64,000 nucleotides of DNA, taken from Escherichia coli. GTDB lineage: Bacteria > Pseudomonadota > Gammaproteobacteria > Enterobacterales > Enterobacteriaceae. Positions within the stretch are counted from its first letter, which is position 1; the number at the start of each line of letters is the position of its first letter. Under the pieces are notes generated by a model that saw only the letters and a program-made list of their open reading frames with translations, was not told the DNA's origin and did not search any database. Location: assembly GCF_029227855.1 (NCBI RefSeq), contig NZ_CP074356.1; one strand, written 5' to 3'. Made by a program: the position numbers and the translations under genes. Below, in pieces: positions 14,673 to 17,799 of the stretch.

Positions 14673-15931
14673 GATAAAAACTCTCTTTGGGCTCGTGAAA
14701 AAAAGGCTTCATCACCGAAGTTGCCAGATTTAAGGGCGAGTGAGACAGGTTTATCCAGTGCGTTTACCCACGGCACGCCGGGAGAAATGGTTGGGCCAAT
14801 ATGAAACCCTTTTATTCCCAGGCTCTGTGTGACTACGCCGGAGGTCTCACCGCCTGCGACAATAAAGCGTGTCACGCCTTCCGCTGCTAACCGCGCCGCT
14901 AGTTGAGAAAACAGTGTTTCTACTGCCTGACTGGCTTTATGTGCACCGTATTGCTGTTGAATTGCTGCCAATGCGTCAGTGCTGGCAGTGGCAAAAACCA
15001 GTGGAGCAAGTACACTTTCCTGGCCCAGAACCCACTCTGCCAGTTCGTGTGCATAAGCGGCCAGAGTTTCAATTGAGAGGCAGCGTGCCACATCAACTTC
15101 ACGGGCTGGTGCAATTTGACGGTAATGTGCTACCTGGCAGTTGGTCATTTGAGAGCATGAACCGGAGAGCACTACGCCGCGCCCAGCGAGCGGATGCCCT
15201 GCTTTGCGAGCCTGGTTACCGTTTTCTTGCGCCCACTGCCGGGCAAGGCCAATCGCCAGACCAGAACCGCCCGTTACCAGTGGGGTATCGCGCAAGGCTT
15301 CTCCCTGAATTTCCAGATGGTGTTCGGTCAGCGCATCAAGCACCGCGTAGCGGTAGCCCTCTTGCTGTAAGCGAGCCAGCTCTTGACGAACGGCATCCAC
15401 ACCTTGTTCGAAAACATGTGCCGAAACGACGCCGCAGCGCCCTGTGGATTGCGCTTCAACCAGACGGGGAAGATAGCTGTCGGTCATGGGATTTACCGGG
15501 TGATGGCGCATCCCGGATTCGGCCAGCAGTTGATTCATTACGAACAAATACCCCTGATAAACCGTACGTCCGTTGACCGGCAGGGCCGGAGAGAAGACCG
15601 TAAACGGCGTGTCGAGAGCATCCATTAATGCATCGGTAACCGGGCCGATATTACCTTTCGCCGAACTGTCGAAAGTAGAGCAGTATTTGAAATAGATCTG
15701 TTTGCAACCTTGCTGTTGCAACCAGCTCAGTGCCGCCAGCGATTGCTGTGTGGCTTCAACCACCGGACAGGAACGCGTTTTCAGGCTGATCACCAGTGCG
15801 TCGATTGCTTCCGGCATTTTACCTGTTGGAACACCGTTAATTTGTACCGTTGGTAGACCGTTTTCCACCAGAAAACTGGCGATATCCGTCGCGCCGGTAA
15901 AATCATCGGCGATAACGCCAATCTTGATCAT
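14669..15931 (-). CDS. ygbK: Four-carbon acid sugar kinase YgbK (3-oxo-tetronate kinase, OtnK)
   Basis: Track ORF 420 aa; N-terminal MIKIGVIADDFTGATD motif. Confidence 0.85.
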   Translation of the reverse strand: MIKIGVIADDFTGATDIASFLVENGLPTVQINGVPTGKMPEAIDALVISLKTRSCPVVEATQQSLAALSWLQQQGCKQIYFKYCSTFDSSAKGNIGPVTDALMDALDTPFTVFSPALPVNGRTVYQGYLFVMNQLLAESGMRHHPVNPMTDSYLPRLVEAQSTGRCGVVSAHVFEQGVDAVRQELARLQQEGYRYAVLDALTEHHLEIQGEALRDTPLVTGGSGLAIGLARQWAQENGNQARKAGHPLAGRGVVLSGSCSQMTNCQVAHYRQIAPAREVDVARCLSIETLAAYAHELAEWVLGQESVLAPLVFATASTDALAAIQQQYGAHKASQAVETLFSQLAARLAAEGVTRFIVAGGETSGVVTQSLGIKGFHIGPTISPGVPWVNALDKPVSLALKSGNFGDEAFFSRAQREFLS

Positions 15932-16836
15932 GATTTCGCTCCCGGTAGAGTGATGCCAGAGAAAATCTTGATAACTGCGCTATCGTCTTCTTTCCCGTAA
16001 CCCGCGTTACTGGCGCTGGTGAACATATTCAATGCTGTTGAGGCCAATGGCAGCGGGAAGTGCAGGGCTTTGGCTGTATCGGCAACCAGACCAAGATCCT
16101 TAACAAAAATATCGACGGCTGAATGCGGGGTGTAATCGCCATCCACCACATGACGCATCCGGTTTTCGAACATCCAGGAATTTCCGGCGGCATTGGTCAC
16201 GACGTCATACATCACATCCAGCGGGATCCCCGCACGGGCTGCAAGTGCCATCGCTTCGGCTCCGGCAGCAATATGTACGCCCGCTAACAACTGGTGAATA
16301 ATTTTTACGGTCGAACCTAGTCCCGGTTCTGCACCTATGCGATAAACTTTTCCGGCAACGGCTTCCAGCACGGGTGCCAGTCGTTCAAAGGCAATATCGC
16401 TACCGGAGGCCATGACAGTCATTTCACCGTTAGCGGCTTTTACTGCACCACCAGAAACTGGCGCATCCAGCATTTCCAGATCGAATCCAGCCAGAGCGGT
16501 AGCAATTTCTTGCGCATCAGCACTAGCGATAGTGGAAGAAACCATTACTGCCGTACCGGGTTTCAGATGTTGTGCAACGCCTGTTTCACCAAACAGCACC
16601 TGTTTAACCTGGGCCGCATTGACCACCAGCACCAGCAGAGCGTCCAGTTTTTCGGCAAACGTCGCGGCGTTATCAGAAACCCCGCAAGCACCTGCCTCTT
16701 TCAACGTAGCGCAGGCATTGCTGTTCAGGTCTGCGCCCCAGGTAGAAAGACCTGCGCGGACACATGACAGTGCTGCTCCCATTCCCATTGACCCTAAGCC
16801 AACGATACCGACATGAAACTCAGATCCCGTTTTCAT
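15928..16836 (-). CDS. ygbJ: NAD-dependent 3-hydroxyisobutyrate-dehydrogenase-family enzyme YgbJ (L-threonate dehydrogenase, LtnD)
   Basis: Track ORF 302 aa; Rossmann motif GIVGLGSMG. Confidence 0.85.
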   Translation of the reverse strand: MKTGSEFHVGIVGLGSMGMGAALSCVRAGLSTWGADLNSNACATLKEAGACGVSDNAATFAEKLDALLVLVVNAAQVKQVLFGETGVAQHLKPGTAVMVSSTIASADAQEIATALAGFDLEMLDAPVSGGAVKAANGEMTVMASGSDIAFERLAPVLEAVAGKVYRIGAEPGLGSTVKIIHQLLAGVHIAAGAEAMALAARAGIPLDVMYDVVTNAAGNSWMFENRMRHVVDGDYTPHSAVDIFVKDLGLVADTAKALHFPLPLASTALNMFTSASNAGYGKEDDSAVIKIFSGITLPGAKS

Positions 16837-17031
16837 CTGCTCTCCTTGTTAATTTAAGTGATATTTTGTTTGATATTGTGAATATAGGCGCTGGAAGATA
16901 ACGATATGGTGAGCTGATTCACAAAAATTAACATTGTGTGTTATTTTATGTGAACTAAGCGTTAGTTGCGCCGCGCACGTTTCGCAGGCAAATAGCGTAG
17001 AATGTCAGCAGGACAAAGGAAGGAGCAAAAG

Positions 17032-17799
17032 TTGATACCCGTAGAGCGTCGCCAAATCATCCTTGAGATGGTAGCTGAAAAAGGCATTGTCAGTATTGCT
17101 GAACTAACGGACAGAATGAATGTGTCACATATGACCATTCGTCGGGATTTACAAAAACTGGAGCAGCAGGGAGCCGTTGTGCTGGTGTCCGGAGGCGTCC
17201 AGTCTCCGGGACGCGTGGCGCATGAACCTTCTCATCAGGTAAAAACTGCGCTGGCAATGACGCAAAAAGCGGCTATTGGCAAGCTGGCGGCAAGTCTTGT
17301 TCAGCCGGGAAGTTGTATCTATCTGGATGCGGGAACGACCACGCTAGCGATAGCACAGCATCTGATTCACATGGAGTCACTGACTGTGGTCACAAACGAT
17401 TTCGTTATTGCGGACTACTTGCTCGACAACAGTAATTGCACAATTATTCACACTGGCGGTGCAGTGTGTCGGGAAAACCGTTCCTGTGTCGGGGAAGCCG
17501 CTGCGACCATGCTGCGCAGCCTGATGATTGATCAGGCTTTTATTTCTGCATCGTCATGGAGTGTGCGGGGGATTTCTACGCCAGCGGAAGATAAAGTCAC
17601 GGTGAAACGGGCGATTGCCAGTGCCAGCCGCCAGCGAGTTTTGGTCTGTGATGCGACGAAATATGGTCAGGTGGCGACATGGCTGGCGTTACCATTAAGC
17701 GAGTTTGATCAGATTATTACAGACGACGGTTTGCCGGAGAGTGCCAGTCGCGCGCTGGCGAAGCAGGATCTCTCTTTGCTGGTAGCGAAAAATGAATAA
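17032..17799 (+). CDS. ygbI: DeoR-family transcriptional regulator YgbI
   Basis: Track ORF 17002..17799; I prefer the in-frame TTG at 17032, which has an AAGGAAGGAG Shine-Dalgarno 6 nt upstream and gives 255 aa; the ATG at 17002 has no Shine-Dalgarno and is an alternative. Confidence 0.8.
   Translation: MIPVERRQIILEMVAEKGIVSIAELTDRMNVSHMTIRRDLQKLEQQGAVVLVSGGVQSPGRVAHEPSHQVKTALAMTQKAAIGKLAASLVQPGSCIYLDAGTTTLAIAQHLIHMESLTVVTNDFVIADYLLDNSNCTIIHTGGAVCRENRSCVGEAAATMLRSLMIDQAFISASSWSVRGISTPAEDKVTVKRAIASASRQRVLVCDATKYGQVATWLALPLSEFDQIITDDGLPESASRALAKQDLSLLVAKNE

Follow-up and report, generated by a model that had tools for sequence, protein, structure and literature searches.

Which sequences within the divergent ygbI-ygbJ spacer of Escherichia coli are recognized by YgbI, and how are they arranged around the two promoters found there? 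YgbI is a recently de-orphaned regulator with one known genomic target, and both the regulator and its function are already published: it represses the acid-sugar operon ygbJKLMN from this spacer. ChIP-exo with YgbI-8myc gave a single genomic site, in the ygbI-ygbJ spacer, with an S/N of 12.5, and deletion of ygbI raises ygbJ, K, L, M and N by log2 values of 5.6, 5.2, 5.1, 4.6 and 4.0, respectively, and permits growth on L-tartrate (PMC8464067). The published ChIP-exo and deletion RNA-seq thereby bear out the claim, made in a first-pass annotation of this DNA, that YgbI controls ygbJKLMN from the ygbI-ygbJ spacer. In laboratory evolution on m-tartrate, mutations in ygbI came under selection, and both ygbI and ygbJ-N were overexpressed (PMC6452873; PMC6892915); the overexpression of ygbI in ygbI mutants supports autorepression. 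In the part of the literature mentioning ygbI that was covered, no YgbI operator sequence was found.

The window is the whole stretch of E. coli DNA that was analyzed, 64,000 nucleotides in length, and the genes and spacer that concern us lie within it as follows.

15928-16836, minus strand: ygbJ (ltnD), L-threonate dehydrogenase, the first gene of ygbJKLMN; an open reading frame that matches the NCBIfam ThreonDh equivalog at 473.6 bits and is so annotated in RefSeq.
16837-17031: the ygbI-ygbJ divergent spacer, 195 bp.
17032-17799, plus strand, starting at TTG: ygbI, a DeoR-family repressor of 255 amino acids; NCBIfam trans_reg_YgbI at 484.5 bits (equivalog cutoff 400), with the RefSeq start.

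YgbI combines an N-terminal HTH_DeoR domain (PF08220, 59.4 bits) with a C-terminal DeoRC sensor domain (PF00455, 174.2 bits). NCBIfam equivalogs in the cluster comprise YgbI, L-threonate dehydrogenase, 3-oxo-tetronate kinase and 3-oxo-tetronate-4-phosphate decarboxylase; the fifth cluster gene passes the 2-oxo-tetronate isomerase model at 396.4 bits, and its highest-scoring model is PRK09989 at 588.3 bits. YgbI is the sole regulator encoded within the cluster, and its gene adjoins and diverges from the catabolic operon. The longest open reading frame would start ygbI at an ATG at 17002 (265 amino acids), a start that was rejected because the mapped transcription start, at about 17011, is downstream of this ATG; the TTG at 17032 is used by RefSeq and by the orthologues, and the same correction from ATG 17002 to TTG was made earlier (PMC2760140). 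An Rfam scan of 16600-17250 gave no match, and an RNA element is not indicated. The ygbI-ygbJ stretch is 100% identical to that of several E. coli strains and 98.9% identical to that of K-12 MG1655, in which window position w becomes position g of NC_000913.3 by g = 2861430 - (w - 16836). Within the spacer there are four differences from K-12 (16887, 16904, 16913 and 16924), all outside the conserved hexamer cores described below: position 16913, in the CRP spacer, is G in the window and T in K-12, and position 16924, in the spacer of box C, is A in the window and T in K-12. Position 16875 is listed alongside these four differences.

A find-repeats analysis of the spacer recovers four related 16-mers, copies of TGTTAATTTwwGTGAA, which the first-pass annotation had missed. 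The spacer contains 24 pairs of 16-mers with at least 12 of 16 positions identical, versus 1.96 in shuffles, and 0 of 500 shuffles reach 24. The four copies, referred to as boxes A to D, are the following.

16847-16862, plus strand: box A, TGTTAA-tttA-AGTGAT (TGTTAATTTAAGTGAT); half-sites 10 bp apart, with identities of 0.97 (A1) and 0.90 (A2) across 19 genera; PWM score 27.4 bits.
16867-16882, plus strand: box B, TGTTTG-atat-TGTGAA (TGTTTGATATTGTGAA); TGTT and TGTGAA/TGTTAA conserved, spacer identity 0.32; PWM score 10.1 bits.
16918-16933, minus strand: box C, TGTTAA-tttt-TGTGAA (TGTTAATTTTTGTGAA); contains the near-universal TCACAaaaATTAACA block; PWM score 27.2 bits.
16939-16954, plus strand: box D, TGTTAT-ttta-TGTGAA (TGTTATTTTATGTGAA); an inverted repeat with box C across a 5-nt gap; PWM score 21.4 bits.

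A PWM trained without Escherichia sequence and run over both strands of the 64-kb window scores boxes A, C and D above every other site; the half-site regex was derived from these E. coli boxes, and that regex in turn served to pick the sites for the PWM, which makes the scores partly circular for the core positions, not for the locations. Box D is conserved in Escherichia, Salmonella, Entomohabitans and Edwardsiella. The fourth-best dimer-box hit of the window, AGTGTGAATAATTGTGCAAT (17435-17454, minus strand, 14.6 bits), falls within the coding sequence of ygbI, some 400 bp from its start, and could reflect chance, coding constraint or an internal operator.

Are these boxes conserved together with the protein? 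An alignment of 18 YgbI orthologues (58-87% identical to the window protein) was used to fetch 80 loci, one genome per species, and ygbJ is divergent from ygbI in about 70 of the 80, which span the Enterobacterales, Pasteurellaceae, Aeromonas and Succinivibrionaceae. The recognition-helix segment of YgbI, VSHMT[IV]RRD, shows little or no variation among the orthologues, so that a shared half-site is to be expected, and TGTKAA is the sole motif common to all of the orthologous spacers examined. Aligned across 21 genera, the ygbJ-proximal 112 nt give the consensus TGTTAAtTTnAGTGATanTTTGTTnTnTnnTGTtAA..TaTAng ... GTGat-N5-TCACAaaaATTAACA. Averaged over the 19 other genera, identity with the E. 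coli base at the remaining half-sites is 0.86 for B2, 0.92 for C1, 0.83 for the left CRP half-site and 0.87 for the right CRP half-site, which is also C2; the predicted ygbJ -10 hexamer scores 0.85, the promoter spacer 0.29 and the CRP spacer 0.25. Conserved cores with variable spacers across genera define the repeated unit as the hexamer [TA]GT[GT]A[ATC], which is paired at exactly 10 bp in a set of 46 non-redundant orthologous spacers.

In these spacers, whose common descent inflates z-scores and overstates independence, 371 hexamer half-sites are found versus 101 expected, and same-strand spacings peak at 10, 20, 30 and 40 bp with 95, 39, 44 and 16 pairs, versus about 0.4 each. Dimer boxes, meaning hexamer pairs at 10 bp, occur at least once in 46 of 46 spacers, versus a total of 0.5 in shuffled spacers, and their density of 7.81 per kb compares with 0.021 per kb in 242 kb of flanking sequence, an enrichment of about 370-fold. 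Boxes are also found at non-homologous positions. Haemophilus influenzae has four hexamers in strict 10-bp register, box arrays at such positions are found in Gilliamella, Aeromonas and Succinivibrionaceae as well, and in Serratia, Yersinia, Pectobacterium and Pantoea a box directly follows the ygbI -10, for example TACAATGTGAAAAAATGATAA. At the level of sequence, repeated half-sites thus overlap and flank the promoter and are conserved with YgbI, as looked for in a DeoR/GlpR-family system.

The boxes are interleaved with three further elements of the two promoters.

16908-16923, centre 16915.5, no strand: CRP site GGTGA-gctgat-TCACA (GGTGAgctgatTCACA), identified from sequence and its conserved half-sites.
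16881-16886, minus strand: predicted ygbJ -10 hexamer, TATATT, placed by its fixed distance from the CRP centre in orthologues.
16998-17003, plus strand: ygbI -10 hexamer, TAGAAT, conserved as GCGTAnAAT; 5'-RACE places the ygbI transcription start at about 17011, 21 nt before the TTG (PMC2760140).

The CRP site matches the consensus at nine of 10 core positions, and the TGTGA of box C is the reverse complement of its TCACA half-site. A novel in-vitro CRP site between ygbI and ygbJ, taTGTGAatcagaTCACCata, has been reported with a Kd of 8.4 nM (PMC12871828, a 2026 preprint); this is the K-12 allele of 16908-16923, on which the Kd was measured, and the window allele differs from it in one spacer base and one flanking base. 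To survey the -10 region in orthologues, the best CRP-like site of each was taken and the minus-strand hexamer starting 29.5 nt from its centre was read. The hexamers obtained are TATATT (17), TACATT (7), CAGGAT (7), CAGAAT (7) and TATACT (4), with TAATAT, CATAAT and TACAAT among the rest. At this distance a hexamer of the form [TC]AnnnT is present in nearly all of about 70 orthologues, and its second-position A and sixth-position T extend to Haemophilus, Actinobacillus, Aeromonas and the Succinivibrionaceae. The 21 nt between the CRP site and the -10-like hexamer are kept in length and not in sequence (identity 0.29). This fixed distance across a non-conserved intervening sequence suggests that ygbJ has a CRP-dependent promoter of class II, with a predicted start near 16874.

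Relative to this predicted start, the CRP centre is placed at -41.5 (about -95.5 from the ygbI start). Box A would occupy +13 to +28 of the ygbJ transcript; box B, -8 to +8, overlapping the -10 by 2 bp; box C, -44 to -59, its TGTGA being the upstream CRP half-site; and box D, -65 to -80. A genomic-SELEX survey with RpoD holoenzyme predicted another ygbJ promoter, TTCACA-16-GTTAAT, inside boxes D and C (16918-16954), flagged the spacer as H-NS-associated, and built a predicted ygbI promoter, TTCACA-18-TATTTT, from the hexamers of boxes C and D. The latter disagrees with the mapped ygbI start. A simple promoter scan returned the same TTCACA-18-TATTTT as its only plus-strand candidate, which was set aside as contradicted by the mapped start.

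With two promoters in an AT-rich spacer, and with box B overlapping the predicted -10 hexamer, it could be held that there is no specific operator here at all and that the conservation comes from promoter elements only. Elements of the -10 and -35 type do not, however, explain a strict 10-bp register or GT[GT]A cores that are conserved between variable spacers, and the same boxes recur at several positions and on both strands; we find this account scarcely credible. A second alternative accepts the phased TGTKAA boxes and assigns them to another protein, as extra CRP half-sites or as sites for H-NS or some other AT-tract binder, with YgbI placed elsewhere in the spacer. It draws on the fact that TGTGA is also a CRP half-site, on the H-NS flag of the genomic-SELEX survey, on a YgbI ChIP-exo peak that is not centred on any box, and on the overlap of a PWM hit at idnD-idnK (15.3 bits, see below) with a CRP-like site. 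CRP, however, requires inverted half-sites with a 6-bp spacer rather than direct repeats at 10 bp, and the TGTTAA and AGTGAT variants are conserved as such. The boxes, moreover, are enriched only next to ygbI, which they follow even where they have moved within the spacer, and it is YgbI that the cluster encodes as its only regulator. Binding of the boxes by a protein other than YgbI is accordingly regarded as improbable.

The first-pass annotation had proposed two different elements as YgbI sites, and the published ChIP-exo peak lies close to one of these.

16860-16877, plus strand: GATATT-N6-GATATT, out of register with the conserved boxes and not conserved.
16953-16967, no strand: palindrome AACTAA-gcg-TTAGTT, invariant within the aligned E. 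coli and not conserved outside.
About 16955-16985, give or take 2: the YgbI ChIP-exo peak of 31 bp, NC_000913.2 2859304-2859334 (PMC8464067 supplement).

Both repeats are present where they were placed, with the GATATT copies at 16860-16865 and 16872-16877 and the palindrome as listed. The general idea behind them holds, and the specific sites mostly do not, because the repeats are at chance level and are not conserved in orthologous spacers. Against dinucleotide shuffles of the 195-bp spacer, perfect 6-nt inverted repeats with a gap of 0-8 number one versus a mean of 0.50, a count matched by 33% of shuffles, and perfect 6-nt direct repeats within 20 nt number two versus 0.99, matched by 25%; the two perfect 6-mer repeats are mostly what chance produces in an AT-rich spacer (P ~0.25-0.33). 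Over the 64-kb window there is a single instance of either exact pattern, versus 0.01-0.03 expected, a post hoc test, and after the generic 6-mer repeat test this rarity was rejected as proof of significance. Conservation in orthologous spacers, the check that the annotation itself had named, is lacking for both: copies with 0 mismatches occur in E. coli sequences only, and neither GATATT-N6-GATATT nor AACTAA-N3-TTAGTT is found at 0 mismatches outside E. coli among 74 spacers.

The first GATATT consists of the tail of the conserved half-site A2 (AGTGAT, 16857-16862) plus the gap between boxes A and B, an overlap for which the earlier proposal deserves partial credit. The second consists of the variable 4-nt spacer of box B plus one base on either side. 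Across 19 genera it matches the E. coli base with a mean identity of 0.37, it is polymorphic within E. coli (GATGTT in IHE3034, ECONIH2 and 09A19CPO009), and its counterpart in E. albertii is TATGTT. The palindrome is unchanged in five of five aligned E. coli strains, and 4080 of 4571 E. coli genomes (89%) share the same 71 bp around it. In E. albertii it reads ACGTAA-gtg-ATAGTC, with four arm changes and 0 compensatory ones, and it is absent from the Salmonella, Entomohabitans and Edwardsiella spacers. In the five nearest species its arms have identities of 0.43 and 0.37, versus 0.80-0.90 for the adjacent hexamers of box D, and it evolves faster than the spacer average. Within its right arm, CGTTAG (16960-16965) lies 11 bp after the TGTGAA of box D and, to judge by its sequence, could act as a weak third half-site next to that box.

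That the GATATT pair and the palindrome are themselves the YgbI operators is, on this evidence, unlikely. Both do lie within the spacer that YgbI binds in vivo, and the palindrome, besides its near-uniform surroundings in E. coli, is covered by the converted ChIP-exo peak, the other point on which the earlier proposal earns credit. The operator of E. coli DeoR is a palindrome containing TGTTAG, which the CGTTAG of the right arm resembles. An operator unique to E. coli, however, is unlikely to be the main one when the recognition helix of YgbI is invariant across its orthologues, and polymorphism of the second GATATT and uncompensated changes in the palindrome also count against these repeats. 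They are mostly not YgbI recognition units and largely coincidental, and the palindrome may make a local, E. coli-specific contribution to YgbI binding.

The TGTKAA boxes remain the favoured candidates for the YgbI contacts, and the position of the peak has to be considered in relation to them. The converted peak abuts the last base of box D, with its centre about 23 bp from that box, and is therefore adjacent to the box cluster rather than centred on it; beyond the palindrome it takes in GC-rich sequence of poor conservation and extends to the ygbI -35 region (-56 to -26). Its conversion combines NC_000913.3 gene coordinates with an offset of 1977-1978 between NC_000913.2 and NC_000913.3 at this locus, which we take to be made up of the IS1 and IS5 insertions plus 1 bp. 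The genomic-SELEX table agrees with such an offset, in that it assigns 2859272-2859340 to the ygbI/ygbJ spacer. The peak may be off-centre as a result of peak-calling that took one border pair of a large multi-site complex. It may also be that YgbI occupancy extends from box D via CGTTAG toward the ygbI promoter, in which case this would be the autorepression contact of E. coli, replacing the start-site box of Serratia, Yersinia, Pectobacterium and Pantoea.

Taken together, the most probable arrangement, and one in which we have considerable confidence, is that YgbI acts on TGTKAA pairs 10 bp apart, with the four boxes A to D disposed around a class II CRP-dependent ygbJ promoter. The sequences, conservation, spacing and specificity behind this model were computed here; YgbI binding in vivo, derepression and in-vitro CRP binding come from the literature. 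The assignment of the boxes as YgbI contacts, like the ygbJ start site and its class II geometry, is inferred from sequence. YgbI would recognize TGTKAA-type hexamers (TGTTAA, TGTGAA and AGTGAT), and pairs of them would lie on one face of the helix, since they are exactly 10 bp apart. Boxes A and B would form a tandem that covers the ygbJ -10 hexamer and start and continues downstream of them, and boxes C and D an inverted pair, 5 bp apart, on the upstream side of the ygbJ promoter. YgbI on box B would block RNA polymerase at the ygbJ -10 and start, whilst on box C it would compete with CRP for the TGTGA pentamer that the two share. The centre of the A/B cluster is separated from that of the C/D cluster by about 72 bp, and a loop may form between the two; autorepression would come from YgbI on the C/D side, with its occupancy perhaps spreading toward the ygbI -35 region.

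A more elaborate version can be put forward only tentatively. A higher-order YgbI oligomer might bind two clusters of four hexamers, A/B and C/D, so that the CRP site and the core promoter of ygbJ fall within a loop, with CRP and YgbI mutually exclusive via TGTGA. In Escherichia the array might run from box D through CGTTAG toward the ygbI -35 and so replace the start-site operator of Serratia, Yersinia, Pectobacterium and Pantoea, which would explain the off-centre peak. The inducer is probably a phosphorylated intermediate of the pathway. A search of the PDB returned only a relative of the DeoR C-terminal domain (7l6l) and no DNA-complex template, and a literature search on direct-repeat operators of the DeoR family gave nothing useful.

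Other sites have been attributed to YgbI. Reg-Seq mass spectrometry assigned it to idnK (-48 to -27) and leuABCD (-18 to +1), and neither of these two Reg-Seq sites contains a dimer box; there is at most one half-site (CGTGAA at idnK). The K-12 idnD-idnK spacer does hold the 15.3-bit PWM hit (locus 1958-1977), which lies outside the Reg-Seq mutagenized window and overlaps the CRP-like site TGTGATGAAGATCACG. With the only good hit outside that window, the idnK and leuABCD sites were set aside as independent motif support, giving none either way, and the Reg-Seq assignments may reflect weak or non-specific binding. A "YgbI box" at dgcZ, where no regulation was seen (PMC13131220), was likewise discarded as support, its best PWM hit being only 7.1 bits.

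The spacer itself is present in 4587 of 5426 complete E. coli genomes, about 15% of strains being without the junction. Strain KFu019 (H40) has two matches; one is confined to the 54% of the query on the ygbI side, which suggests a disruption of the ygbI-ygbJ region. A contig labelled "MAG: Oscillospiraceae bacterium" (RKCM01000024.1) carries a ygbI that is 99% identical and a spacer that differs at five of 195 positions (~97% identical), and is almost certainly E. coli contamination of a metagenome bin. In Salmonella enterica subsp. arizonae there is no full ygbJ match upstream of ygbI, and box A1 reads TATTGA versus TGTTAA; a protein search also found shortened YgbI forms of 191 amino acids, one of them named for S. 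arizonae. These observations suggest that the ygbI-ygbJ locus is decaying in the S. arizonae lineage.

What is new here is a four-box operator model that, together with the proposed class II CRP promoter, gives precise and testable positions. It is a modest refinement of a conventional repressor-operator system and brings no new biology, and the box model would let YgbI regulons for the use of L-threonate and D-erythronate be predicted in other Gammaproteobacteria.

In its general design the locus matches other DeoR-family regulons of E. coli, those of UlaR, DeoR and GlpR among them, in which the repressor is encoded at the locus, a divergent gene is autoregulated, and multiple operators lie on and around a promoter activated by CRP. 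One of the closest parallels is UlaR, a DeoR-family regulator of E. coli that acts at the divergent ulaG and ulaABCDEF promoters, with operators on both sides and activation by CRP. The action of UlaR at ulaG and ulaABCDEF was reportedly described by Garces et al. in 2008. YgbI resembles UlaR as a locus-encoded DeoR-family repressor at the divergent promoters of an acid-sugar pathway, with several predicted operators on both sides, probable CRP activation and an expected phosphorylated effector, and the two pathways are linked in that L-threonate is a breakdown product of ascorbate. In contrast to UlaR, the half-site sequence of YgbI is different and no IHF site was identified at ygbI-ygbJ, and oligomeric state, looping and effector are, for YgbI, proposals only. 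DeoR itself uses three looping operators with a 16-bp palindrome (TGTTAGAA/TTCTAACA), and GlpR uses tandem operators with a 20-bp period. As in both of these, multiple predicted operators of YgbI would cover and flank the promoter and CRP would co-regulate; the DeoR half-site TGTTAGAA resembles the TGTTAA of the YgbI boxes, and boxes A and B resemble the GlpR tandem operators with their 20-bp period. However, the proposed YgbI unit consists of two hexamers in direct repeat at 10 bp, with palindromy only between whole boxes (C versus D), which sets it apart from DeoR.

In Brucella, VdtR is a DeoR-family repressor of an ltnD/otnK erythronate-threonate cluster; the ltnD promoter has several binding sites for it, and free acid sugars do not release it (PMC10580937). 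By analogy, free acid sugars are probably not the ligand of YgbI. VdtR governs the same pathway genes, but it is alphaproteobacterial, no motif has been defined for it, and it is likened to YgbI here by pathway and family. Finally, the published YgbI ChIP-exo study (PMC8464067) deals with the same regulator and locus and likewise concludes that YgbI represses ygbJKLMN, has a single target and regulates itself; it offers one 31-bp peak and no motif, and to this the present analysis adds a proposed operator of four boxes and a proposed class II CRP promoter.
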